Part shown: positions 3,290-62,591 of the stretch, piece after piece | Numbering within the stretch: position 1 is the stretch's first letter | How the letters are laid out: the number at the start of each line of letters is the position of its first letter | Notes under the pieces: model-generated | Told to the model about the DNA's origin: nothing | Databases searched by the model: none | The model's input: the letters and a program-made list of their open reading frames with translations, nothing else | Position numbers and translations under genes: made by a program | DNA from: Parcubacteria group bacterium Gr01-1014_3 | GTDB taxonomy: Bacteria > Patescibacteriota > Minisyncoccia > UBA6257 > WO2-44-18 | Length of the DNA stretch: 64,000 nt | Reading direction: 5' to 3' | Assembly (NCBI GenBank): GCA_007376445.1 | Contig: VMGF01000002.1 | Location: 103,928-167,927, forward strand

Positions 3290-3985
3290 TTAATATTTTT
3301 TACTTATTTCGACGATTTTTATAATTTCTTTTGCTTCTAGACTAGCGCCCCCTACCAACGCGCCATCAATTCCCTCTTTACTTAAGAACTCCTCGACGTT
3401 CTGGCTGGTCACGGAACCACCGTAGATAATTCGAGGGTTTAGGGTATAGGGTTTAGCGTTTAGGGTTTCCTTAATGAATTGTACCATTTTCAGCATACTC
3501 TCTGGACTATCCGGTGTGCCGGTGCCGATGGCCCAGATTGGCTCGTAAGCTATAACTAAATTTTCAATTTTAAATTTTAAATTTTCAAGTAAGGATAGGC
3601 CGATTTTTAGTTCACGGCCAACGACTTCTTCGGTTTCATTGGCATCCCGCTCAGCCCTGGATTCACCAACGCACAAGATCGGGATTAACCCGTCTTCTAC
3701 CGCCTGAGCCATTTTTTCCGCTACCGTCTCGTCAGTCTCGCCTAATTTTCGGCGATCCGAATGGCCGATGATCACATATTCCAGATTTTCCGGTACGGCC
3801 TCTCCTGTCATATCCTGCGCGCCGAGTTTGGCGGTTTTTATATTTTCAGCGACCACTTTTAAAAACGAAAATGGCGGACAGATCACCAATCCTTCGACAT
3901 CACTATCTTTTGCAAGCTGAGCTGCCTCATTTTCTGTTTCCGGGTGCGACTTCCAATTAGCAATAATGAGTTTGGACATTAACAA
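3290..3985 (-). CDS. tpiA: triose-phosphate isomerase
   Basis: IIANWK, GHSDRR, AYEPIWAIGTG, IIYGGSV motifs. Confidence 0.9.
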   Translation of the reverse strand: MLMSKLIIANWKSHPETENEAAQLAKDSDVEGLVICPPFSFLKVVAENIKTAKLGAQDMTGEAVPENLEYVIIGHSDRRKLGETDETVAEKMAQAVEDGLIPILCVGESRAERDANETEEVVGRELKIGLSLLENLKFKIENLVIAYEPIWAIGTGTPDSPESMLKMVQFIKETLNAKPYTLNPRIIYGGSVTSQNVEEFLSKEGIDGALVGGASLEAKEIIKIVEISKKY

Positions 3986-5504: not shown

Positions 5505-5576
5505 GGCGGCGTAGCTCAGTGGTAGAGCGAGCGTTTCATAAGCGCTAGGTCACAGGTTCGATCCCTGTCGCCGCTA
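5505..5576 (+). tRNA. tRNA-Met (CAT), elongator type (could be tRNA-Ile2/lysidine)
   Basis: GGCGGCG acceptor, GCTC/GAGC D stem, anticodon loop TTCATAA, T arm ACAGG-TTCGATC-CCTGT; no encoded CCA. Confidence 0.8.
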
Positions 5577-5586
5577 CTAATGAAAT
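5561..5586 (+). repeat. direct repeat copy 1 (tRNA-Met 3' end plus 9 nt: atccctgtcgccgctacTaatgaaat)
   Basis: 26/27 nt identical to 5768-5793. Confidence 0.6.
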
Positions 5587-5767: not shown

Positions 5768-5793
5768 ATCCCTGTCGCCGCTACAAATGAAAT
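5768..5793 (+). repeat. direct repeat copy 2 (atccctgtcgccgctacAaatgaaat), overlapping the murD start
   Basis: att-like duplication of tRNA 3' end. Confidence 0.6.
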
Positions 5794-7049
5794 CGCACAT
5801 GAAAATAGCAATTCTTGGCTTTGGACGTGAGGGAAAGGCGGTTTTCAAGTTTCTCTCCGCCCGAGGCGGATCCTCCTTCGGAGGAAAAAAAAATAAATAT
5901 AAAAAGGCAACTATAGAAGTTCTCGATCAGAAACATGGCCAGGATTATCTGAAAGATCTTGATACTTTCGATCTGGTCTTCCGCTCCCCTGGCGTGCCGT
6001 ATAATCGTCCGGAAATTCAACGAGCGATAAAAAATGGAGTTAAGTTCTCCAGCGTCACCAAATTATTTTTTGAACTCTGCCCGGCGAAAGTTATCGGAAT
6101 TACCGGAACAAAAGGAAAAGGCACGACTGCTACCCTGCTCTATAAGATCCTTAAAGCTTCTGGCGCGGACGTTCATCTCGCCGGAAATATCGGAAAACCA
6201 GCCATCGATATCCTCCCAAAACTGCGCAACTCATCGACTGTTATCTTGGAGCTTTCCAGCTTCCAGCTTCAGGACCTCGGCCAGTCCCCGCCAATTTCTA
6301 TTGTCACAGAAACCTTTGAAGACCACATGGACGCGCATAAGAGCGTCAAAGAATATCTGGACGCCAAAACTAATATCGCCCGACATCAAAAAAAGGACGA
6401 TGTGATTTTCTACTTCGCCGATAGCGACTGGGCTAAAAAGATCGCCCTCAAAAGTCCGGCGAAAAAGATCGCGGTCTATGGCGGATCATTCGGCTTAAAA
6501 AAGAACTTCGTGATGGCGGCAACCGTCGCGGCTTATCTTGGTGTAGACAGAAAATTCATCGTGCGGACTCTCAAAAACTTCCCAGGCATTAAACATCGGA
6601 TGGAATTAGTTGCGGAAAATTGTGGAGTCCGGTTTTATAACGATTCCGCCAGCACTAATCCTAGGACAACCGCGGCCGCGATCTTAGAATTTACTAATAC
6701 CCTAAACGCTAAACCCTATCCCCTAGTTCTAATCGCCGGAGGCAAAGACAAGAATCTGGACTACGCGCCGCTCGCTACCACCTTAGCCAATACATCTCAC
6801 GTAAAAACCGTGATCCTTCTAGGAGAAAACAAAAATAAGGTTTTCGAAAAATTGAAAATTGAAAATTTAAAATTGAAAATTGAACTTGCCGATGATCTTG
6901 AGATCGCGGTAAAAAACGCCTATCAATCAGCTAAAATATACGGTGGTGCTGTGCTTTTTTCGCCTGGAGCGGCAAGTTTCGATATGTTCAAAGACTATCA
7001 AGACCGCGGCGAGCAGTTTAAAGAGATTGTCAAAAAGCTTAAAAAGTAA
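5787..7049 (+). CDS. murD: UDP-N-acetylmuramoylalanine--D-glutamate ligase
   Basis: Mur ligase P-loop GITGTKGKGTT, NDSASTNP, C-terminal Mur ligase domain; start may be the ATG at 5802; low-complexity N-terminal insert (SARGGSSFGGKKNKYKK). Confidence 0.85.
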   Translation: MKSHMKIAILGFGREGKAVFKFLSARGGSSFGGKKNKYKKATIEVLDQKHGQDYLKDLDTFDLVFRSPGVPYNRPEIQRAIKNGVKFSSVTKLFFELCPAKVIGITGTKGKGTTATLLYKILKASGADVHLAGNIGKPAIDILPKLRNSSTVILELSSFQLQDLGQSPPISIVTETFEDHMDAHKSVKEYLDAKTNIARHQKKDDVIFYFADSDWAKKIALKSPAKKIAVYGGSFGLKKNFVMAATVAAYLGVDRKFIVRTLKNFPGIKHRMELVAENCGVRFYNDSASTNPRTTAAAILEFTNTLNAKPYPLVLIAGGKDKNLDYAPLATTLANTSHVKTVILLGENKNKVFEKLKIENLKLKIELADDLEIAVKNAYQSAKIYGGAVLFSPGAASFDMFKDYQDRGEQFKEIVKKLKK

Positions 7050-7065
7050 TAGAATAGAAGCACTT

Positions 7066-7143
7066 GCGGTGGTGGTGTAGCCTGGTTAACATGCCTCCCT
7101 GTCACGGAGGAGATCGCCGGTTCAAATCCGGTCCACCGCGCCA
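7066..7143 (+). tRNA. tRNA-Asp (GTC) with encoded CCA
   Basis: acceptor GCGGTGG/CCACCGC, anticodon loop CTGTCAC, T arm GCCGG-TTCAAAT-CCGGT, 3' GCCA. Confidence 0.85.
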
Positions 7144-9910: not shown

Positions 9911-11209
9911 TTACTTCTTTTTCTTCTTTTTGTCCGTGAACTGTTCTTCTTCGGTCGATCCCTTCATAGCCTTCAGGGTTGCCTTGCCGCCAGAAACTAA
10001 ATCCAAGATTGCGTCAAAATACTTTGTGCCGACGACTTCCTGATGGCGCAGGCCTTCATAACCAAACTCTTCGCCTTTCATTTCTTCCTGCTGAATCTCA
10101 GCGTAAGCTGCCATGCCACGCTGAAGATATTGCCGAGAAGCTATGAAGCTCATGAGATTCACGAGATGCCATCCGAACAGAGTCACGAACTGGAACTTAT
10201 ATCCAAGCTTCCCAAGGTCATCCTGAAAAGATTCGATTCGCTTCATAATTTCATCCATCCCTATCGGATCGGCGACATTAAGCTTGTACTTCTTAGCAAA
10301 GAAGTCTACCCATTTGAAAGATGGCGAACAGTTGTAAGCCAAGGGCTTTCCGGGAAATTTCGCGTGAACTTTTTCAGCCACATACCGCGCGTCATCGAGA
10401 TCCGGAGTCGCCGTCTCGCACCAGAGCATTTCCGCGTAAGGCGCGTAAGCCAGCAGTCGTTCAACCGCGAGTTCGAAACCGCCTTTGATCTCATAGAAAC
10501 CTTCGGGGGTCCGCTTGCCGGTCAAGAATGGACGGTCGCGATCATCAATATCGCTGGTAATGTGGCCCGCTTTTTCGGCATCGGTCCGGGCGATAATCAC
10601 CGTAGGAACTTTCAGAATATCCGCCGCTAGACGAGCCTGCTTAAGTTTTTCAATATGCTCCCTGACGGGGACCATGATCTTTCCGCCCAAGTGACCGCAC
10701 TTCTTTCGCGTGGAATCCTGGTCTTCCAGGTGAATCGCCGCCGCCCCTGCGTTAATCAGCATTTTTGTAAGTTCGAAAGTGCTGTTCAGTCCAGCTTCGG
10801 CATCAGCCACAATCGGCACGAACCAGTTTTTCGTATCGTCGCCAGCAAGATGCTTTCGTTCATCTTCACGCTGTAGCGCGTTATTGATTCTGGCCACATG
10901 CGCCGGAACACTGTTCAGCGGATACAAACTCATATCCGGATAGGTTTGACCGGCCAGATTCATGTCTGCCGCAACCTGCCATCCACTGACGTAAATCGCC
11001 TTCATACCGGCGCGCACCATCTGTACGGCCATCGAGCCAGTCAAGGCGCCGAAGCTTTTCACATAATCATTGCCGCTGATCAGTTTACGGAAGTTTTCCG
11101 CGCCACGTCGAGCAGTTTCAATCCCTTCATAACGAACCGTGCCGCTGACACTATCAAGCTGCTTGTTGGTATATGGACGGATCGGAACAAAATTCTTCTT
11201 CTTAGCCAT
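9911..11209 (-). CDS. aceA: isocitrate lyase
   Basis: ICL signature KKCGHLGGK; start taken at MAKKKNF (ATG 11207-11209) with AAGGAGG RBS; overlaps the aceB stop. Confidence 0.85.
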   Translation of the reverse strand: MAKKKNFVPIRPYTNKQLDSVSGTVRYEGIETARRGAENFRKLISGNDYVKSFGALTGSMAVQMVRAGMKAIYVSGWQVAADMNLAGQTYPDMSLYPLNSVPAHVARINNALQREDERKHLAGDDTKNWFVPIVADAEAGLNSTFELTKMLINAGAAAIHLEDQDSTRKKCGHLGGKIMVPVREHIEKLKQARLAADILKVPTVIIARTDAEKAGHITSDIDDRDRPFLTGKRTPEGFYEIKGGFELAVERLLAYAPYAEMLWCETATPDLDDARYVAEKVHAKFPGKPLAYNCSPSFKWVDFFAKKYKLNVADPIGMDEIMKRIESFQDDLGKLGYKFQFVTLFGWHLVNLMSFIASRQYLQRGMAAYAEIQQEEMKGEEFGYEGLRHQEVVGTKYFDAILDLVSGGKATLKAMKGSTEEEQFTDKKKKKK

Positions 11210-12776
11210 TCTTGGCCTCCTTTTCCAGCTTGAGTAGCTTCTCATAGGCTGGGATGGTTAAAAAATCAATGAACTTCGGACTAGTGGCAACTTTGGCAAA
11301 AATCTTAACGGCTTCTGGAAAACGGCCGCTCGTATTCTTACCAAACTCCCTCTTTATAAGCTGGAGAACCAGCTTTTTTGTCACTCGCTTGCCGTTCGTC
11401 ATTTTGACGCGATGCCTGGCCCAGTGCCAAACCTGGCCGCCGGAAACATGCGCTGTGGCCAAATCTTCCATTCGATTTTTCTGCGCCACGCAGCCGATCT
11501 TCCTCAGCCAAGCCTCCAGATAAGAAATGCCAGCCTGAATATTCTCCAGCAGACCATCCTTGGTAACCTCGCCAGCGACTGGCTCAAGAAGTTCTTCCTG
11601 GCCAACCCGAATGTTGATCTCGTGATTCAATTGATTCGGTCCGGGCATCAGCCTGTCAGCAACTTTTTGCGCGACCGGAACATAAGCCGGATGAGCGACC
11701 CAGGTGCCGTCGTAACCAATTGAGAACTCGCGAACTTTATCTGCCTCGGTCTTGGACTCAGCAAACTGATTCCATTCCGGATTATCTTTCGCCGGAATAA
11801 ATGCCGACATCCCGCCGATGGCGTGAGCGCCGCGTCGATGGCAAGTCTGGACCAGTAAGCTCGCGTAAGCCGCGAGAAAACCCTTATCCATGGTCACTAA
11901 TCCGCGATCAGGCAAAACCCGATCTTTGTGTTCACGAAGTTTCTTTATGTAGCTGAAGATATAATCCCAGCGACCGGCGTTCAAACCAGCCGAGTGATCG
12001 CTCAGCGCGTAAAGGATCTCATGCATCTCAAAAGCCGCAGGCAAGGTTTCGATCAGAACCGTGGCCTTGATAGTGCCGTGAGGAATCATGAGCGTCGATT
12101 CGGTGAAGGAAAAAACATTGTCCCAAAGCCCGGCCTCTTCACGACTCTCCATTTTCGGGAGATAGAAATACGGCGCGGAACCTCTGGCGAAGAGCTCGTG
12201 AGCGTTATGATAAACGAACAGGCCGAAATCAAACAAAGATGCCGACACCGGCCGTCCGTGAACTTGCATGTGCTTTTCCAAAAGATGCCAGCCGCGAGGC
12301 CGCACCATAAGAACCGCCCGCTTTTCATTGAGTTTATATTCTTTGCCTTCGGGATTCGTGTAAGTCAATTCACCACGAATAGCGCGATAAAGATTCAATT
12401 GGCCCTGAATTATATTTTCGTAAGTTGGGCACAGTGAATCTTCGAAATCGCTCATGTAAACTTTGGCGCCGGAATTGTAGCCATGGATAACCATCTTGGC
12501 GTCGTTGGCAGGACCAGCAATTTCCACTCGCCGATCACAAAGATCGAACGGAGCGGGATTTACTTTCCATTCGCCAGATCGTAGAACTTCGGTTTCCGGA
12601 AGAAAATCCGGCAACTCACCCTTATCAAATCGGCGCTGTCTGACGGCGCGTTTCTGAAGCAAGAGGACTCGTTCACGGTTAAATTTCTTCTGAAGCTCGG
12701 CCACAAAAAGAAGCGCGTGCGGACTAAGAATATGCTGATATTCCGCGGAAACGCTCTCGGTTAAATCGATTCTCAA
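11202..12776 (-). CDS. aceB: malate synthase A
   Basis: ~524 aa, malate synthase A family conservation throughout (GRWDYIFS, catalytic region). Confidence 0.85.
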   Translation of the reverse strand: MRIDLTESVSAEYQHILSPHALLFVAELQKKFNRERVLLLQKRAVRQRRFDKGELPDFLPETEVLRSGEWKVNPAPFDLCDRRVEIAGPANDAKMVIHGYNSGAKVYMSDFEDSLCPTYENIIQGQLNLYRAIRGELTYTNPEGKEYKLNEKRAVLMVRPRGWHLLEKHMQVHGRPVSASLFDFGLFVYHNAHELFARGSAPYFYLPKMESREEAGLWDNVFSFTESTLMIPHGTIKATVLIETLPAAFEMHEILYALSDHSAGLNAGRWDYIFSYIKKLREHKDRVLPDRGLVTMDKGFLAAYASLLVQTCHRRGAHAIGGMSAFIPAKDNPEWNQFAESKTEADKVREFSIGYDGTWVAHPAYVPVAQKVADRLMPGPNQLNHEINIRVGQEELLEPVAGEVTKDGLLENIQAGISYLEAWLRKIGCVAQKNRMEDLATAHVSGGQVWHWARHRVKMTNGKRVTKKLVLQLIKREFGKNTSGRFPEAVKIFAKVATSPKFIDFLTIPAYEKLLKLEKEAKNG

Positions 12777-25116: not shown

Positions 25117-27267
25117 TTATAATGTTTTTCTTTTTAATAACACGGCATTTAGGGCCACGATTATGGTGCTAACCGACATCAGCAAACCGGCGATCGCGGG
25201 CTGGAGCAGAATCCCCTGGCTCGCCAGAACTCCGGCGGCCAACGGCAAAGCGATCACATTGTATCCTGTCGCCCAGAAAAGATTCTGGATCATCTTTCTG
25301 TAGGTGGCCCGTGAGAGTTCAATGATCTTTACGATATCCCGCGGATCATTCTTAACTAAAATAATCCCGGCGGATTCAATGGCAACGTTCGTGCCCGCGC
25401 CAATCGCGATGCCAAGATCGGCTTGAGTGAGCGCTGGGGCGTCGTTGATGCCATCACCAACCATAGCCACCCGCCGCGGGCGGGAATTTTCAATTTTAAA
25501 TTTTAAATTTTCAAACTTTCCTTCTTGAAGTTGCTTCACGATTTTTGCTTTTTCTTCTGGCAAAACCCGCGCGAAATATTCATCTATCCCCAATTCTCCC
25601 GCCACCCATTTCGCCACGTTTTCCGAGTCGCCAGTGATCATCGCGGTTTTTATTCCCATTTTTTGAAGAGCCGCCACGGCTTCTCTGGACTCTTCGCGAA
25701 TAATATCTCCGAGCGAAAAAGCTCCGAGTATCACTTTCGCCGCGATCACAAACGCTATCCCCTTGCCGTTCTTCCCTTCAACTTCAGAGAATTCTTTAAA
25801 AATCTCCGGCATTTCTATGCCAAGCGACTCCACCATCGCCATTCCACCCACGGAAATTTCCGCATCATTAATCTTTCCTCGCGTGCCTTTCCCGGAAAGG
25901 CGGATAAAATCTTTAACCGGAAGAATTTGAACCGAGCGTTTTTTGGCTTCCGCCATGATCGCTTTTGAAACAACATGCTCAGATAAAGAATCTACGGAAG
26001 CAGCCAACTGTAAAACCCGGTTTTCTTGCTCCCACGGCGTGGTGATTATTTTTTCCACTCCATAATTTCCGGTGGTCAAAGTCCCAGTTTTATCAAACAA
26101 AACAATATCCACGCTTCGCGCCGCTTCAAGCGCGAGACGCTGTTTTACCAAAAAACCGTTGCGCGCGGCGAGAGTAGTGGAAATTGAGGCAACGAGCGGC
26201 ACCGCTAAACCTAGCGCGTGCGGGCAAGCGATCACTAACACCGCTACAAGCCGAGCCACCGCGAAGCTAGTTCCGGCGCCGGCCAGGAGCCAGGCAATCA
26301 ACGTGATCAGGCCTCCAGCGACGGCGATAATAGTTAAATAAAAAGCCGCTCTGTCAGACAGTATCTGAAGGCGGGATTTGGAAGCTTGCGCTTCCCGCAC
26401 CAGCCGCATTACTCCGGCCAAAAAGGTGCCTTCCCCTATTTTTGTGACTTTTATTTTTAAAGAACCATCGGTATTTACAGTGCCAGCGATCACCTCGCTA
26501 TTCACTATTTTTTTAACCGGAGCGGATTCGCCGGTGATCATAGACTCATTCACGTTTGCCTCACCCTCGATCACTGCTCCATCGGCCGGGATCCTGCCGC
26601 CAGGACGTACCAAAACCACGTCTCCGACTTTCAAATCAGAGATCGCGACTACCCTGCCATCGGCCAACTCCGCCGTGTCTGGTAAAAGTTTAGAAAGTTC
26701 CTTGAGGGCGCCTTGCGCTCCGCTGACCGCGCGCATCTCCAGCCAGTGCCCTAAAAGCATGATGGTAATTAGCGTCGTGAGTTCCCAAAACAAAGCTTCC
26801 TCGCCGGCAAATACCGCGTATAGACTCCAAAGATACGCGGCAGAGATCGCGATGCCGATCAGCGTCATCATGCCGGGCAATTTCGCTCTTAACTCCCGCC
26901 AGGCGCCAGCTAGGAAAACCCAGCCACCATAGAAAAATACGATTGAACCGAGGACCAACGGCAGATATGCCGATCCGTAGAAATCGGGCGGAGACCAATT
27001 AAAAATCTTCCCGACGACATCGGCATAGAGCACCACGGGAATCGTCAGCGCCAAACTTATCCAAAACTTTCTAAAGAATGCCGCGGTGCTATGCCCAGCG
27101 TGCTTGTCCTGAGCCGCGCCGAAGGATTTATCCTGTTCGGAACTTTTGACTTTGGACTTTGGACTTTTGACTTCCAGCAGGCCCATTCCGCATTCTGGAC
27201 ACATACCGGGCGCATCCTGAATTACTTCTGGGTGCATGGGACAGGTATATTTTAATGGATTGATCAT
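25117..27267 (-). CDS. copper-translocating P1B-type ATPase (CPH motif, CopB-like) with N-terminal Cys-rich metal-binding motif
   Basis: CPMHPEV...[30 protein letters not shown]; contains in-frame repeat insertions (see findings). Confidence 0.85.
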
Positions 27268-50608: not shown

Positions 50609-50642
50609 AACACTCCAACATTCTTAAGAATGTTGGAGTGTT
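50609..50642. repeat. palindromic repeat copy A (34 bp perfect: AACACTCCAACATTCTTAAGAATGTTGGAGTGTT)
   Basis: perfect palindrome centred on TTAA; identical core to copy C. Confidence 0.7.
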
Positions 50643-50654
50643 AATTGTACGCGT

Positions 50655-52187
50655 TTATTTTAAATCATCCAGAAGCCCCAATTTTACTAGGCGCGACCGA
50701 ATAGCTCCTTTTGTTCTATTAAATAGTGCGGCAAGATCGGCGACAAGTGAACCACCTACAAAAGATCTTCTTAATCTTTCATCTTGCGTTTCATCCCACG
50801 GCAAATAAGCGCTGGGGTGCTTCTCTCTTATTTTTTCATATGACACAAAATTTTTCTGTGCGGATATAGCCACAGGTTCGCCTTCTGCTGCCACGCTAAA
50901 CCTCTGCGCAGCCTTCTCCGACTGCGCTCGGAACTTTGTATCTTTTTCTAATACTTCTGGATGCACCCGAAACGCGAGCTCATTCCAACCAATAATATGA
51001 AGGCCTGAAAGTCTTCTCACGCGTGAAAGCGCGACATAGCCCTGTCCAAATTCAAAAACATCGCTCAAATCCACCACTGCCTCGTCCAAACTTATACCCT
51101 GACTCTTATGTACGGTAATCGCCCACGCAAGACGAAGCGGTAATTGTGTAATGCGCGCTCGAATTGCGCTATTCTCTTCTACTGTCCAATCCGTTGCCCT
51201 GACTTCAATCCGTCGTCCGTTTCTTGCCCTTACAACCGGACATCCGCTCTGCGCGTCAAATTTTTCAACCACGCCCAACGTGCCATTCACAAACCCTTCT
51301 TTCGGATTATTTTTTGTGAACATTACCGCCGCTCCAACTTTGAGATAGAGTGTCTCAGGCGAAAGACAACCCCTCTTAAGCATGGCAACAATTTTTTCTT
51401 GGCCCTGCGCGGACATAGTAAATGCACGAGGATCACCCGAAAGCTTGGCGAGTATTTCATTATTGACGCGATCCACATCAATATTGTGGGAAAAAAGTTT
51501 CGGCGCGCTATCGGGGATGGCGTGATTTGTAATTTTTCTAGCTTTAATGTGCCTTAAGTGTTCGTCGCCAAAAACGTTGCCGCGAATCGCCGAAAGCACG
51601 GCAAGAAAATCGGCATCGTCCTGTCTATGCTGCTCCTCAAGATAACAGACGACCGGCTTCGCTCGCTCCCAGGCGGGCGAGTCATAGGCAAAACCAGCCG
51701 CCGACTCTCGTATGAGAACATTGTCCGCGTTACTTTCCTCTTCAGCTTTAGAAACTGGCGGTAATTGGAAAAAGTCTCCGACTAAAACAATTTGAACTCC
51801 CCCAAAAGGTTCCTGGTTCCGTTTAATTTTGCGGCAAATAACGTCAATCATGGAAAGTGTTCCGGCGGAAAGCATAGAGACTTCGTCTACTATCAGTACT
51901 TGAGCCCGCTGGATGCGTTTTGTGATATTTCTATTTGATGAGATTTTATCAAGATCGTATTGGCTTAATTTAGTTTTAATGCCTATGCCGCTCCAAGAAT
52001 GAATTGTCATTCCTCCGATATGAGTCGCGGCAATACCGGTTGAGGCGGTAATCGCCGGCTCAATGCCCCGCGCGCGCAAATACGCCACATACTCGTTTAC
52101 TGTATGCGTTTTACCAGACCCAGGTTCGCCGGTCAAAAAAACATTAGCTGCCGTCTTCAAAATTGATAATGCTTGGGATTGGGTCAT
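50655..52187 (-). CDS. PIF1-like SF1B DNA helicase with C-terminal HTH-like extension
   Basis: Walker A GEPGSGKTHTV, Walker B LIVDEVSM, PIF1-family motifs; C-terminal 100 aa extra with DLAALFNRTKGAIRSRLVKLG. Confidence 0.65.
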   Translation of the reverse strand: MTQSQALSILKTAANVFLTGEPGSGKTHTVNEYVAYLRARGIEPAITASTGIAATHIGGMTIHSWSGIGIKTKLSQYDLDKISSNRNITKRIQRAQVLIVDEVSMLSAGTLSMIDVICRKIKRNQEPFGGVQIVLVGDFFQLPPVSKAEEESNADNVLIRESAAGFAYDSPAWERAKPVVCYLEEQHRQDDADFLAVLSAIRGNVFGDEHLRHIKARKITNHAIPDSAPKLFSHNIDVDRVNNEILAKLSGDPRAFTMSAQGQEKIVAMLKRGCLSPETLYLKVGAAVMFTKNNPKEGFVNGTLGVVEKFDAQSGCPVVRARNGRRIEVRATDWTVEENSAIRARITQLPLRLAWAITVHKSQGISLDEAVVDLSDVFEFGQGYVALSRVRRLSGLHIIGWNELAFRVHPEVLEKDTKFRAQSEKAAQRFSVAAEGEPVAISAQKNFVSYEKIREKHPSAYLPWDETQDERLRRSFVGGSLVADLAALFNRTKGAIRSRLVKLGLLDDLK

Positions 52188-52589: not shown

Positions 52590-52635
52590 CCAATAAACAC
52601 TCTAACATTCTTAAGAATGTTAGAGTGTTTATTGG
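52590..52635. repeat. palindromic repeat copy B (46 bp perfect, variant with symmetric compensatory changes)
   Basis: ccaataaacactctaacattc-ttaa-gaatgttagagtgtttattgg. Confidence 0.7.
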
Positions 52636-52932: not shown

Positions 52933-52966
52933 AACACTCCAACATTCTTAAGAATGTTGGAGTGTT
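52933..52966. repeat. palindromic repeat copy C (34 bp, identical to copy A)
   Basis: seen directly. Confidence 0.7.
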
Positions 52967-58885: not shown

Positions 58886-59087
58886 TTGATTTTTTTATTA
58901 TTTTTAGATTTTTGGTACAAAAAACCCGGATAACTTTTCGCCGGGTTTGAAAAACATGTTTCAGTTTTTCTTTAATCAGAGATGATTCTAGCTTTTCGGT
59001 AATCCCCGATGATGACGAATTGTTATTTATTTTTTGTCAGCTACTGACGCTATATATAACGAGCCAGGGGAGACTTTATTTCATTAT

Positions 59088-59135
59088 CTTCTCCAATTCC
59101 TCTAAAATGCGGACCATGGCGAAGGTGGGGAGTTT
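59088..59135. repeat. cassette-boundary direct repeat copy 1 (~48 bp)
   Basis: 40/40 identical to 60528-60567 then divergent tail gggagttt. Confidence 0.7.
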
Positions 59136-59139
59136 GGGA

Positions 59140-59400
59140 CTAGTGTTTATAAACACTTTGTCGATGGCCGATACTCAAAACGAGAATTATTAATCGGTTT
59201 TTTTCGATCCGGTAAATTATCCTGTATGGCCAAATATGAATGCTAAACTTACCGGCGAGTTCGCCAGTAAGTGGCTGCCCCAGAAATGGATCTTGTTCCA
59301 AGTCCTTAAGCGCTTTTAATACGCCGTCCTTTTTAGCCCTAGGAAGCTTTTGCAGTCTTTTTCTGGCTGATTTTGCGATTATTACGTGATACCTGGACAT
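59140..59400 (-). CDS. relE: RelE/ParE-family toxin
   Basis: 86 aa, MSRYHVIIAKSARKRLQKL... typical RelE/StbE pattern. Confidence 0.7.
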   Translation of the reverse strand: MSRYHVIIAKSARKRLQKLPRAKKDGVLKALKDLEQDPFLGQPLTGELAGKFSIHIWPYRIIYRIEKNRLIILVLSIGHRQSVYKH

Positions 59401-59671
59401 ATCCTTCTTCTTTTAATATTTCATCAAGAGTTGAGTATTGGCCCTTCGCGTATTCGGACTCCCCCTTCTTAATGTCTTTCATTATCAACGGATTATTTAA
59501 TATATCAACAGTCTCGATTAAAGACTGATATTCATCCACAGACAAAACCACCGCTTTGGGACGGCCCTTGTCAGTTAACGTATAGTGCCTGTTGGGCCTT
59601 TGTACGTCTTCCGCAATATCAAAAATTTTCCTGCGCGCCTCTGAAATAGGCAATGTAGTGCTTTTACTCAT
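59339..59671 (-). CDS. Phd/YefM-family antitoxin
   Basis: start at MSKSTTLPISEARRKIFDI (the track's 5' extension is repeat-derived); overlaps the relE start. Confidence 0.65.
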   Translation of the reverse strand: MSKSTTLPISEARRKIFDIAEDVQRPNRHYTLTDKGRPKAVVLSVDEYQSLIETVDILNNPLIMKDIKKGESEYAKGQYSTLDEILKEEGYVQVSRNNRKISQKKTAKAS

Positions 59672-59726
59672 ATGTACATAATAACGTACACCTAGCCGAT
59701 AGGTCAAGTTAGTTATCCACCGCAAG

Positions 59727-59774
59727 TTTCTCCAATTCCTCCAAAATGCGGACCGTGGCGAAGGTGGGGAGTTT
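59727..59774. repeat. cassette-boundary direct repeat copy 2
   Basis: 45/48 identical to copy 1. Confidence 0.7.
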
Positions 59775-59933
59775 CGGTGAGACTTTTGAGTCAAATTAGC
59801 CCTGGGGATAACTATTGACTTTATGTGCCTGTCTTTGATACAATCTAGACAAGATCACCACGAAAAAGGCCCCATAAGGACGAGACCTTATAGGGGCCTT
59901 TTTCTTTTTTAGGGCCGTAAGCATGTATTCAAG

Positions 59934-60518: not shown

Positions 60519-62591
60519 TTAAATCAACTTCTCCAATTCCTCTAAAATGCGGACCATGGCGAAGGTGTCGAGTTTGCAGTATTCGAGCATGTCTTTGCGG
60601 AGTTGGGCTTTATCGATTGTAAGATCGCCACGGGGCGTTGCCCCTCGCGATGACGGGTCTCCGGGCGCAATGACGGAGGAATCGGGGTCGTCCTGCGGGG
60701 CAGGACGGCCGATCAACTTGAGCCAACTGGAGGAGGCGGTGCCGCCTTCTTGGATGGCCAGCTTTTTGTAGGAAAGTTCCGGGGCGAGGACGGGCTGAAC
60801 TTTTTTGATCGAGGTACTGCCCTTAAAATCTTTGTGGACGTAGTGCTGTTTGGTGAAGATGTCCATGAGGTCGTAGGTTCTGGAATTTATTGACTCAATA
60901 AATTCCTTGGCTTCGGGGACGCGCGCGGCGATCTCGGTGTTTCTCGAGCACTCGAAGCGCTTGCTCCAGACGATCAGACTCCCCTTCGGCCCGATCTGCG
61001 ACTGCAGGGATTCCACAAATGGTCGGCTGGGGTCGGTAGCCTGGTCGTGTAAAAATTCAAAGTGCTTCAACTTCGCGCCGAGCTCATCTAAAACATAAAG
61101 CGAGTATTGAAACGGGATCTGCTGATATGGCGAAAACCCGTCGAACATCGGAATGGCGGCCGGGAAAGTTTCATAGTCCACGAAATAAAGAGGATATTTT
61201 AACTGCTCCAACTCTTCTTGTATTTTTATTTTATCTACCAAAATCTGATTCAGCACGAAAGCCCGGATCTGATTTTTCTGCGTGTCGTTGAGTTCCATCT
61301 CCTCCGGAACTTCGTGAATATGAAATTTATTGCCGTCGATCAGCGATTCCAGTTTTTTCTTACTTAAGCCGATGCGGTTAATATCGTGGACGCTGTATTT
61401 CGGCACCTGGGGATTGGAGTGATGAAAAGTCGCGCAGTGGTTAGACCGACCCTTGTATATGCAGGTACAAGACCCGGGCGGTTCTTTATCGCTTGAAAGA
61501 TACTTCAAGGCCTGCTCCATCTCTAAAGCCACTGGTAGGGCGAGTTCATTGATCTCGCGGGTGATATTGTCGCTTTTGAATAGATTAACGAGGTCGAGCG
61601 CGCCCTGGCGGACATATTCCGAGTTGAGGTGCATTAGATTTATCTCATTAATCTTGAGGCCGCACTTTCTTAATAAATTGACCTGGAAAGCGAGATCATA
61701 ATAATGGCGCTTCTTGTCGGTGTCGTTGGAGGCTTTGATTTCGGTGATATTCCAGGCGTCCGCCGATTTGTCGTAGGTCAGCACATCCACCGCGGCGAGA
61801 AAGTTGTCTTTTAGAAATACCGGCTGGAAAATGACTTCTTGTTTTTTAGCGATCAGCTCGGCGGTAAGTTTTTGCGCGGCCTCATCCCGGCCTTCAATCA
61901 GCACACCGCTGGGCCAAATTTTGCGCGCCTCTAACTCCACCTCATTACCGGTTTCGATGATGTGCTTTTCAAAATCGGAAAGCTCCGATTTGTAATAAAT
62001 ATCGGGCTGATGAATTTTGTGCCAGACATTCTTCGGGCACTCCCGGAAAAGGATGTAGTCAGTTTTGGATATAAACATATGGATATTTTTATATTTTCTC
62101 TGTAATCTATCTATCAATTCTCTACAAAATAAGACCGTATTATCAATATTATCATTATAAGCATCTTCGACGGGTGTTTTCTCAAGAGGATACTTGCCAG
62201 ATTCTATAGCCCTTCGAATTTTTTTTAAATAATTTTCAATATCATCATCAATATCTGCAAAACAACGTTTGTAAAAATTTATTAAATTGTGCCTTGTAAA
62301 TGCCTGGACGAATCCAGCGCCTGTTGAATCGAGTGCAATCATTCCCTCTTGTAAGGCAATTGCCTTGAGATAGCATTCTATAGCAAACCCGTAGTTCATA
62401 ATGATACGACTGCTATACCTTATGTTATTTTTATATTTTTCATATAATAAATCGGCGATTTCCTCATTGATCTTGGCGTGGGAGATCCAAAGGAAGGGGT
62501 CTTGAGCTGATTCTTTCCATGCCTCGGCATCGTAAATATCACGAGAAAAATCCTCCGGAGGTTTATCCCAAATTAAATCATCTTCATGCAT
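60519..62591 (-). CDS. large multidomain nuclease-like protein (PD-(D/E)xK + Cys cluster, DUF2779-like; C-terminal DnaQ-like DxE)
   Basis: VDVLTYD...ITEIKAS (D..E.K), CTCIYKGRSNHC, C-terminal LYFVDYETF. Confidence 0.4.
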   Translation of the reverse strand: MHEDDLIWDKPPEDFSRDIYDAEAWKESAQDPFLWISHAKINEEIADLLYEKYKNNIRYSSRIIMNYGFAIECYLKAIALQEGMIALDSTGAGFVQAFTRHNLINFYKRCFADIDDDIENYLKKIRRAIESGKYPLEKTPVEDAYNDNIDNTVLFCRELIDRLQRKYKNIHMFISKTDYILFRECPKNVWHKIHQPDIYYKSELSDFEKHIIETGNEVELEARKIWPSGVLIEGRDEAAQKLTAELIAKKQEVIFQPVFLKDNFLAAVDVLTYDKSADAWNITEIKASNDTDKKRHYYDLAFQVNLLRKCGLKINEINLMHLNSEYVRQGALDLVNLFKSDNITREINELALPVALEMEQALKYLSSDKEPPGSCTCIYKGRSNHCATFHHSNPQVPKYSVHDINRIGLSKKKLESLIDGNKFHIHEVPEEMELNDTQKNQIRAFVLNQILVDKIKIQEELEQLKYPLYFVDYETFPAAIPMFDGFSPYQQIPFQYSLYVLDELGAKLKHFEFLHDQATDPSRPFVESLQSQIGPKGSLIVWSKRFECSRNTEIAARVPEAKEFIESINSRTYDLMDIFTKQHYVHKDFKGSTSIKKVQPVLAPELSYKKLAIQEGGTASSSWLKLIGRPAPQDDPDSSVIAPGDPSSRGATPRGDLTIDKAQLRKDMLEYCKLDTFAMVRILEELEKLI
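60528..60575. repeat. cassette-boundary direct repeat copy 3 = native 3' coding end of the 60519..62591 gene
   Basis: encodes KLDTFAMVRILEELEKLI*. Confidence 0.7.

Follow-up and report, generated by a model that had tools for sequence, protein, structure and literature searches.

Heptanucleotide cassettes that appear to be copied and swapped at a few protein loops in a Parcubacteria genome

Six short tandem arrays of heptanucleotides lie, in frame, inside three unrelated genes of a 64-kb stretch of the genome of Parcubacteria group bacterium Gr01-1014_3 (contig VMGF01000002.1; the whole stretch is called the window below), namely tpiA, murD and the gene of a copper-type P-type ATPase, each of which carries two. 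The comparison with orthologs and with other genomes is in agreement with a process of selfish DNA that appears to copy and swap such cassettes at a few hot-spot loops and, in doing so, to rewrite the loops of the proteins. The explanation that we favor, with a probability of about 0.55, is that the cassettes are dispersed heptanucleotide micro-repeats, installed at sites of microhomology by short templated patches, filtered by the tolerance of the reading frame and of the loop, and then decaying as coding sequence.

Period-7 cassettes in three genes of the window

Tandem repeats were detected with Tandem Repeats Finder (TRF) and with a scan of periods 4 to 15, with codon-block shuffles as controls. 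The scan gave 5-6 tracts at period 7 (and at its double, 14) against approximately 0.1 in the shuffles, and no tract at any of the other periods scanned in the window. The cassettes, 21-38 nt long and all six inside coding sequence, belong to three families, CCCTAAA-type (module 1), GAAAATT-type (module 2) and AAGTCMA-type (module 3). The approximately 60 open reading frames (ORFs) of the surroundings are, according to their Pfam annotation, ordinary housekeeping and envelope genes, and by our own arithmetic, which supposes random placement, the 2+2+2 distribution of six cassettes over three of about 60 genes has a chance of about 7e-5. Among the five strong arrays of the 64 kb, three come from one family and two from another, out of about 1,170 possible families. 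The features concerned are the following.

3290-3979, minus strand: tpiA, triosephosphate isomerase, 229 aa, two cassettes (translation; PF00121; 100% match to Gr01-1014_3 TpiA)
3559-3588, minus strand: module 2 cassette, (TTGAAAA/TTTAAAA)x4, tpiA site 1, residues 132-141 (repeat scan, copy comparison)
3434-3468, minus strand: module 1 cassette, (CCCTAAA)(CGCTAAA)(CCCTATA)(CCCTAAA)(CCCT), tpiA site 2, TLNAKPYTLNP, residues 172-182
5799-7049, plus strand: murD, encoding UDP-N-acetylmuramoylalanine--D-glutamate ligase (416 aa), with two heptamer cassettes plus a hairpin-type insert (100% match to Gr01-1014_3 MurD)
5859-5885, plus strand: 27-nt in-frame hairpin-type insert, murD N-terminus, ARGGSSFGG
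6699-6725, plus strand: module 1 cassette, murD site A, TLNAKPYPL; the insertion proper is the 21 nt 6699-6719, ACCCTAAACGCTAAACCCTAT
6848-6884, plus strand: module 2 cassette, (TTGAAAA)x5 with one TTTAAAA unit, murD site B, encoding KLKIENLKLKIE
25117-27267, minus strand: copper-type P1B ATPase, 716 aa, two cassettes (Pfam E1-E2_ATPase, Hydrolase, HMBD)
about 25477-25515, minus strand: 39-nt ATPase insertion, made of the module 2 cassette (25485-25514) and 9 nt that complete a GC mini-hairpin
27142-27173, minus strand: module 3 cassette, (AAGTCAA/AAGTCCA)x4.5, linker after the N-terminal metal-binding domain of the ATPase

In coding sense, module 1 reads (CCCTAAA)(CGCTAAA)(CCCTATA)(CCCT..), and its copies in tpiA and murD form an inverted pair of 27 nt with a 96% match. 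The 21-mer ACCCTAAACGCTAAACCCTAT is exact in both (chance expectation 0.00), and the translation is TLNAKPYTL in tpiA and TLNAKPYPL in murD. Module 2, (TTGAAAA/TTTAAAA)n in coding sense, is identical over 30/30 nt between tpiA and the ATPase gene, the murD copy having one mismatch, and no match was obtained in 100 shuffles. The recurrence of the two modules in frame in unrelated genes, first proposed in the initial annotation, is therefore real, all the tracts it placed there being present and translated in frame. The third type of period-7 cassette encodes an in-frame peptide of 10 aa. The description of module 1 as telomere-like does not go beyond a resemblance of the unit: a telomere or linear replicon was rejected, since the arrays are internal, coding and made of 3-5 degenerate units, and only the unit TTTAGGG coincides.

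The reading frame imposes strong constraints on these arrays. All sense frames of a pure (CCCTAAA)n array contain TAA and all its antisense frames TAG, all sense frames of a pure (TTGAAAA)n array, which is also (GAAAATT)n, contain TGA, and stops are found in most frames for each of the three cassette families. A surviving genic copy consequently needs one particular frame and orientation, with the stop position changed in one of every three units; the changes seen are TAA>TAT and TGA>TTA. Since these changes are forced, the argument that the same order of variant units in different genes indicates copying loses much of its force. It stands for module 1, where two unforced features, CGC for CCC in unit 2 and T as the stop fix, recur in the same order, and is much weaker for module 2, whose single unforced variant, TTG>TTT (K-F-K), is common to tpiA and the ATPase gene. 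Only one of the six frames of the module 1 20-mer is open, reading TLNAKPY. Long open CCCTAAA arrays elsewhere encode NPKPY and not NAKPY, so that the CGC unit can be taken as the signature of the module 1 family; all the matches to a tandem peptide query were tiny ORFs lying over long NPKPY arrays, part of them probably eukaryotic telomeric DNA. Metagenomes were scanned for (TTGAAAA)n with two inner unit positions left free. Pure arrays, on contigs with a GC of 0.24-0.68, account for 101 of the 105 module-2 matches of that scan; the four T-variant copies include the only ones in long sense ORFs (L089, LeuRS, and L112), for example in the editing domain of a LeuRS and in a 2-oxoacid oxidoreductase. 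The unforced features of module 1 fit copying from a common source and not a purely local expansion.

A second class of in-frame micro-insert is a GC-rich mini-hairpin of the form CCGCC-NNN-GGCGG, found twice in the window against 0.06 expected. The murD insert at 5859-5885 consists of CCGCC-CGA-GGCGG followed by TCCTCC-TTCG-GGAGGA and is absent from all 29 aligned orthologs. In the ATPase gene, the hairpin CCCGCC-GCG-GGCGGG (25470-25484) directly abuts the module 2 cassette; together, GC hairpin and T-rich array are terminator-like on the antisense strand. The same type of hairpin is nested in the GAAAATT cassette of one related tpiA (L163, ~10400-10460) and forms an 18-nt insert in the murD of another relative (L039).

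The cassette sites in orthologs and in other lineages

When homologs of the three proteins were aligned, the loops that carry cassettes in the window were found empty or filled by other heptamer cassettes. Variation in the TpiA alignment is greatest at the two cassette positions. Where the window gene carries its GAAAATT cassette at site 1 (before AYEPIWAIGTG), a further copy of module 1, CCTAAAACCCTAAACGCTAAACCCTATACGCTA, is found in the ortholog L001 (85% identical), and a heptamer cassette of CGCTAGT type in the ortholog L002 (77% identical). Three unrelated heptamer cassettes (GAAAATT, CCCTAAA and CGCTAGT) are found at one site of genes whose flanks are about 89% identical in nucleotides (89% mean column identity in the whole-gene alignment). 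Other relatives have KLKIENF, KLKTKNL, QPHTLNP, KPYTLNP or nothing at this site, and the insert nested inside the GAAAATT array of L163 is a GC hairpin of 52 nt. Site 2 (before IIYGGS) is hypervariable among about 110 orthologs: AKPYTLNP-type peptides are present in about 18, many of the others have different 7-aa-periodic peptides, and some orthologs have no insert. The module 1 cassette of site 2 is common to L001, L002 and L163 and diverged in L165, where KPYTLNPR is kept via synonymous changes. In L164 (Yanofskybacteria), site 1 is of CCCTAAA type and site 2 of AAGTCMA type, the family found at the N-terminus of the window ATPase. Orthologs free of cassettes are 3-13 aa shorter. A replacement of native sequence at equal length, as had been proposed for tpiA and murD, is consequently seen in tpiA only against orthologs with other cassettes, and not at murD site A, which is an insertion of 21 nt. 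The same peptides encoded by unrelated nucleotides in distant taxa, which would have spoken against copying, are generally not observed, the orthologs having different cassettes or none, with KPYTLNPR of L165 as the exception. A mosaic origin, with a gene segment delimited by a pair of cassettes, was considered and rejected, the part of tpiA between the cassettes being as similar among relatives as the flanks. Elsewhere in TpiA, approximately 15 residues of loop 3 (GAYTGE region, residues ~57-66) are missing here and in the two closest relatives and are present in other Parcubacteria orthologs.

The AlphaFold2 (AF2) model of TpiA has a mean predicted local distance difference test score (pLDDT) of 90.5, and the two cassettes are its two lowest-confidence blocks. 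Cassette 1 (132-141) falls in the coil 128-141 between helix 5 and strand 6, with a pLDDT down to 64, and cassette 2 (172-182) spans the last part of helix 6 and the coil that precedes strand 7 (pLDDT 75). In TIM barrels, the helix-to-strand loops are located on the face opposite to the active site. The cassettes of MurD, LepA, TrmD and TsaD likewise end directly before a hydrophobic strand. The cassettes occupy hypervariable, predicted helix-to-strand loops.

In murD, site A is occupied by a clean insertion of 21 nt (3x7), which the nearest orthologs, L039 and L040 (79% and 74% nucleotide identity), lack. It is found again at 26/27 identical nt in L161, a gene with an overall nucleotide identity of 63% and a third-position identity of 0.40, and in a decayed form in L162; decay after insertion is also seen in the tpiA genes of L002 and L165. 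The empty site, CAT CCG TTA, resembles the end of the cassette, TAT CCC CTA; the 21 nt are not a duplication of local sequence, and the seed present at the empty site does not match the inserted unit. At site B, L039 has an (AGTAATT)4 cassette and L040 none, and sites B and C of relatives carry other heptamer families or nothing. In the ATPase, the 39-nt insertion adds 13 aa to the loop before a 12-residue motif and is absent in 21 of 23 homologues, which confirms its earlier description as an insertion; the N-terminal linker exceeds that of the closest homologue, P0241, by about 13 aa. We also observed a 26-nt direct repeat, 96% identical (5561-5586 and 5768-5793, the second copy 207 nt downstream), the first copy of which starts in the last bases of the tRNA gene 5505-5576 and extends about 10 nt beyond, while the second overlaps the start of the murD ORF, in an att-site-like arrangement.

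Beyond this genome, the exact module 1 20-mer CCCTAAACGCTAAACCCTAT is found at 34 places in the GTDB species set, with about one expected for a random 20-mer. The matches are in Parcubacteria/Paceibacterota, Saccharibacteria, Daviesbacteria and Microgenomates, and also in metagenome-assembled genomes (MAGs) labelled Omnitrophota, Planctomycetes, Acidobacteriaceae (one on a contig of 1.3 Mb), Bacteroidetes and Gammaproteobacteria; several are near contig ends. In-frame cassettes of other genomes are hosted by LepA, TrmD, TsaD, a Mur ligase, LeuRS and glycosyltransferases. The LepA genes of a Paceibacterota MAG and of a Saccharibacteria MAG are identical over 29/29 nt (TAT ACC CTA AAC GCT AAA CCC TAT ACC CT) at the same residue, with a third-codon identity of 0.32 gene-wide, and the TrmD genes of a Saccharibacteria and of a Microgenomates MAG are likewise identical over 29/29 nt at the same residue, with a third-codon identity of 0.44. 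Such identity is explained neither by vertical inheritance of a neutral insert nor by transfer of the whole gene.

The intergenic copies of module 1 keep the same order of units without coding constraint. In other genomes, they often form multi-copy imperfect hairpins of about 65 nt (-23 to -44 kcal/mol) whose arm is near-complementary, with one mismatch per 7-nt unit. The upstream arm is of a different heptamer family, AGCGTTT or TTTAGAG, and not the exact complement AGGGTTT/TTTAGGG, in the loci L005, L006, L009, L021, L033, L035, L036, L018 and L022. Inverted pairs of (TTGAAAA)n are found in L050, L093 and L096. Period-7 tracts in related loci number 39 versus at most 3, and 159 versus at most 12, for other periods, and many unrelated heptamer families occur once each in the fetched loci. 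This dominance of period 7 extends the excess of heptameric simple sequence repeats (SSR) reported by Mrazek 2007 and Rehm 2015. Eight module 1 copies are present in a single genome, the MAG labelled Gammaproteobacteria, to which L035 (6062-6447 and 6485-6515) and L036 (7227-7468) belong; in the same MAG, a (CTATAAG)n array is directly 3' of the tmRNA gene, and a 3' fragment of 23S rRNA alone was matched beside the 5S rRNA.

Origin of the cassettes

Under the favored explanation, dispersed micro-repeats installed by templated patches, five steps can be distinguished: (i) this lineage and several others are rich in period-7 arrays of recurring sequence families, as the inventories above show; (ii) new copies would arise as short patches templated on a second copy of the same family, whether through template switching or through short-patch conversion in replication or repair, the microhomology between repeat unit and target guiding entry and exit and giving insertions or replacements in 7-nt steps; (iii) a selection filter retains only copies that are in the single stop-free frame, that have lost the stop by a substitution (TAA>TAT, TGA>TTA), whose net length is divisible by three and that fall in a helix-to-strand loop tolerant of them, on the non-catalytic face of the protein; (iv) a fixed cassette evolves as ordinary coding sequence, by decay, by a swap for another family or by exaptation; and (v) the cassettes, without apparent function for the host protein, would be tolerated selfish or mutational DNA that makes certain loops of housekeeping enzymes hypervariable. 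Since the donor is periodic, it would offer homology at both junctions, hence insertions in steps of 7 nt, of which nothing but multiples of 21 or compensated lengths would be retained. The selection filter also accounts for all copies being in frame and for a few loops being hit repeatedly. E. coli LepA presumably has a native Y...Y-x-L-N hairpin that would underlie the cassette Y-TLNAKP-Y-T-L-N, which gives a hint of microhomology.

Several points weigh against this explanation. No enzyme or donor locus was identified, templated patching being deduced from its end products alone, and the coverage of the genome is the 64 kb of the window only. The microhomologies, of 6-12 nt, are short, and their assessment was made by eye. 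The recurrence at the same residue could reflect extreme selective filtering more than targeting, and copying within a genome does not by itself explain the identity of a 25-38-nt non-coding sequence across phyla. The module 2 copies of tpiA and of the ATPase gene may be of independent origin, their sequence being largely forced and pure arrays being common in unrelated organisms. Finally, some cassettes are not neutral, given the peptide conserved via synonymous changes in L165.

Among the alternatives, a true mobile mini-element of the kind of REP/REPIN (repetitive extragenic palindromic sequences), SDR (small dispersed repeats) or SPRITE, mobilized by a dedicated enzyme whose gene lies elsewhere, for example a RAYT-type (REP-associated tyrosine transposase) HUH transposase or a reverse transcriptase (RT), is unlikely but is the one that survives best. 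The single arms inside genes would then be half-elements or footprints of the intergenic imperfect hairpins of about 65 nt, which are multi-copy in other genomes, and the inverted pairs of (TTGAAAA)n, the presence of the same sequence in several phyla and the array with GC mini-hairpin of the ATPase and L163 tpiA genes, which looks like a portable terminator, are in agreement with such an element. In contrast, no RT, transposase or RAYT was found among the approximately 60 ORFs of the window by Pfam annotation, no terminal inverted repeats (TIRs) or target-site duplications (TSDs) are seen at the junctions of murD site A, tpiA site 1 and the ATPase insertion, and the copies vary in length in 7-nt steps. 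Neither module has an exact match in the 2.9 million viral contigs of IMG/VR, on which ground a phage origin was rejected, and with Rfam 15 at gathering score only tRNAs, tmRNA and rRNA were matched in the window and nine element-bearing loci, so that a known RNA family was rejected as well. A diversity-generating retroelement target was also rejected: the window has no RT, the copies do not differ in an A-specific way, and exchange concerns whole cassettes.

Independent local expansion, in which slippage from local seeds produces the arrays and favored heptamers together with the avoidance of stops produce their likeness, seems somewhat less likely still. It is strongest for module 2, in view of the 101 pure copies among 105 over a wide range of GC, and the forced changes TGA>TTA and TAA>TAT account for the greater part of the variant order. 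Numerous unrelated heptamer families are seen once each, and the excess of heptamer SSRs has already been put down to polymerase slippage in the account of PMC4692102, citing Mrazek 2007. Against it, the unforced variants and the boundaries of module 1 are common over 25-38 nt to unrelated genes, intergenic copies and phyla, the 21-nt murD insertion does not duplicate the local sequence, two families make up the five strong arrays of the window out of about 1,170 possible, and complete cassettes are swapped between genes with 89%-identical flanks.

A sequence-directed micro-insertion, acting in the Candidate Phyla Radiation (CPR) and some other phyla, in which a trans-acting template overwrites stretches of genes at 6-12 nt of microhomology, appears a little more doubtful than slippage. 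Candidates for the template include a small RNA and a single-stranded DNA, made by the reverse transcriptase or primase-polymerase carried by a mobile element. If true, the same 21-38-nt cassette would have been written into the same loop of LepA, TrmD, TpiA and MurD orthologs, as in a natural "oligo-recombineering" that diversifies protein loops in lineages with saturated synonymous sites.

A functional motif under selection, either a nucleic-acid signal (promoter, leader, terminator, protein-binding or uptake) or a useful peptide, is very improbable. Each module-2 cassette does hold a sigma-70-like TTGAAA-17-GAAAAT in the sense of its host gene (3560-3588, 6852-6880 and 25486-25514), that of murD being about 190 nt upstream of the tRNA gene 7066-7140, and the GC hairpin with T-rich array and the peptide kept in L165 point in the same direction. 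Nine of the 24 intergenic module 1 copies (L005, L008, L011, L013, L019, L020, L029, L034 and L036) lie upstream of an ORF of at least 80 aa on the same strand and end 8-13 nt before its ATG, without an intervening Shine-Dalgarno sequence, and in these nine the TATACC of the variant unit is 5-10 nt before the ATG. Five other intergenic copies are antisense, before divergent genes, so that a directional role is unproven. Among 90 arrays, 12 are in sense and 9 in antisense with respect to start codons (9 versus 5 for module 1), that is, no orientation bias, and a promoter or 5'-leader function was rejected, the ATG-abutting arrays being equal in both orientations. The nearest orthologs moreover lack the cassettes or have unrelated ones, and the low-confidence loops that hold them are away from the active site in the AF2 model. 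Uptake signal sequences and DNA uptake sequences (USS/DUS) occur at about one copy per kb genome-wide, with a 9-12-nt core, and arise via point mutation; an uptake signal was rejected because 2-3 copies per family in 64 kb are far too sparse and the copies are insertions of 21-38 nt.

An artefact of assembly or binning, by chimeric joins through repeats, is scarcely credible, even though repeats break assemblies, several matches lie near contig ends and each of the window proteins is known from a single contig: the frames are intact and carry stop-breaking substitutions, both flanks of a cassette belong to the same gene, in orthologs from independent projects the same loops contain cassettes, and one tpiA gene (P0003) is identical in three assemblies. 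The presence of related in-frame cassettes in independent assemblies makes it unlikely as the cause of the tracts.

If the micro-repeats are indeed copied and swapped as we propose, essential-enzyme loops of these ultra-small CPR bacteria would be repeatedly overwritten from a small pool of 7-mers and not point-mutated, which would explain part of the many lineage-specific insertions of CPR proteins. Since the cassette loops would be non-homologous even at the same site, caution would be needed in the alignment, phylogeny and structure prediction of CPR proteins; the cassettes could also serve as fast markers for strain tracking, and the long-noted excess of heptameric repeats in prokaryotes would become directly testable. 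The points of most interest are the identity across lineages at identical sites and the swapping of cassettes at fixed loops; identical cassettes at identical sites of different phyla, between flanks with saturated synonymous positions, would point to an undescribed process of templated insertion or conversion.

Known repeat systems and other features of the window

In effect, the closest analogue would be the Rickettsia palindromic element (RPE), a selfish DNA translated inside unrelated genes. As summarized in PMC10969869, RPEs (Ogata et al. 2000) are palindromic, approximately 100-150 bp, and have their own conserved ORF segment. As far as that account goes, both are dispersed repeats in frame in unrelated metabolic or housekeeping genes, translated as fold-compatible peptides, in reduced-genome, host-dependent bacteria, and in-frame inserts absent from orthologs are found here at murD site A and in the ATPase. 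Compared with the RPE so described, the cassettes are tandem 7-mers of 21-38 nt, not palindromic alone, which change in 7-nt steps and by swaps of family at one loop; no cassette shows self-complementarity, hairpins being formed only by paired intergenic copies in other genomes.

In substance, the heptameric SSRs and the short tandemly repeated repetitive sequences (STRR) of cyanobacteria would be closest. According to the account in PMC4692102, the cases (Mazel 1990; Mrazek 2007; Rehm et al. 2015) include GGGAATC in Xanthomonas and GGGGAYT and STRR in Nostoc/Calothrix, and are mainly intergenic. The likeness to the repeats described there lies in the excess of period 7, the genome-specific families, the frequent inverted pairs and the rapid change between close relatives, and tandem 7-nt units, the only period in the window, are indeed what we find. 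The cassettes differ from those described cases in being coding, stop-corrected and located in essential enzymes, with intergenic copies in other genomes only, and in that one fixed multi-unit sequence is common to several phyla.

Other systems are more distant. The SDR of Nostoc, reportedly described by Elhai et al. in 2008, are said to be mobile-looking, non-coding sequences of 21-27 nt nested in repeats and genes, with a mechanism that is reportedly unknown. They would be the closest in size; SDRs, reported to be hairpin-centred and confined to Nostocaceae, are not tandem heptamers, and what resembles them more closely here may be the GC mini-hairpin of the form CCGCC-NNN-GGCGG nested in, or abutting, heptamer arrays. 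The imperfect intergenic hairpins of about 65 nt at gene boundaries of other genomes recall REP/REPIN-RAYT systems and SPRITE MITEs (miniature transposable elements with inverted repeats), and hairpin plus T-rich array resembles an intrinsic terminator, as in SPRITE. The differences from REP/REPIN-RAYT are that the window has no RAYT, that the intragenic copies are single arms and that the stems have one mismatch per 7-nt unit. With SSR contingency loci, the cassettes have in common coding tandem repeats with a unit length that is not a multiple of three; they differ from these loci in their essential housekeeping hosts and short arrays, and no evidence of on/off switching was found. Phase variation was rejected, the host genes being essential and the arrays interrupted; slippage would be suppressed because the arrays are short and interrupted by variant units. 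We found no description of heptamer cassettes in CPR proteins in the literature that was searched, which is not a proof of absence.

Other features of the window were noted. A 34-nt perfect palindrome, AACACTCCAACATTCTTAAGAATGTTGGAGTGTT, occurs three times (50609-50642, 52596-52629 and 52933-52966), its copies flanking a Pif1-like helicase gene (50655-52187). The stretch with the palindromes has a lower GC and contains genes for ExoX-like, NERD, S24-peptidase and Phd-antitoxin proteins; it may be a mobile or defence island. A 54-nt repeat is also present in three copies, 85-93% identical (59083-59136, 59722-59775 and 60523-60576, with spacings of 639 and 801 nt), of which the second and third overlap minus-strand genes for a Phd antitoxin (59339-59794) and a DUF2779 protein (60519-62591), respectively. 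Finally, genes for isocitrate lyase and malate synthase are side by side at 9911-12776, that is, a glyoxylate shunt, which to our knowledge is unusual in Parcubacteria/CPR, normally without metabolism related to the tricarboxylic acid (TCA) cycle.

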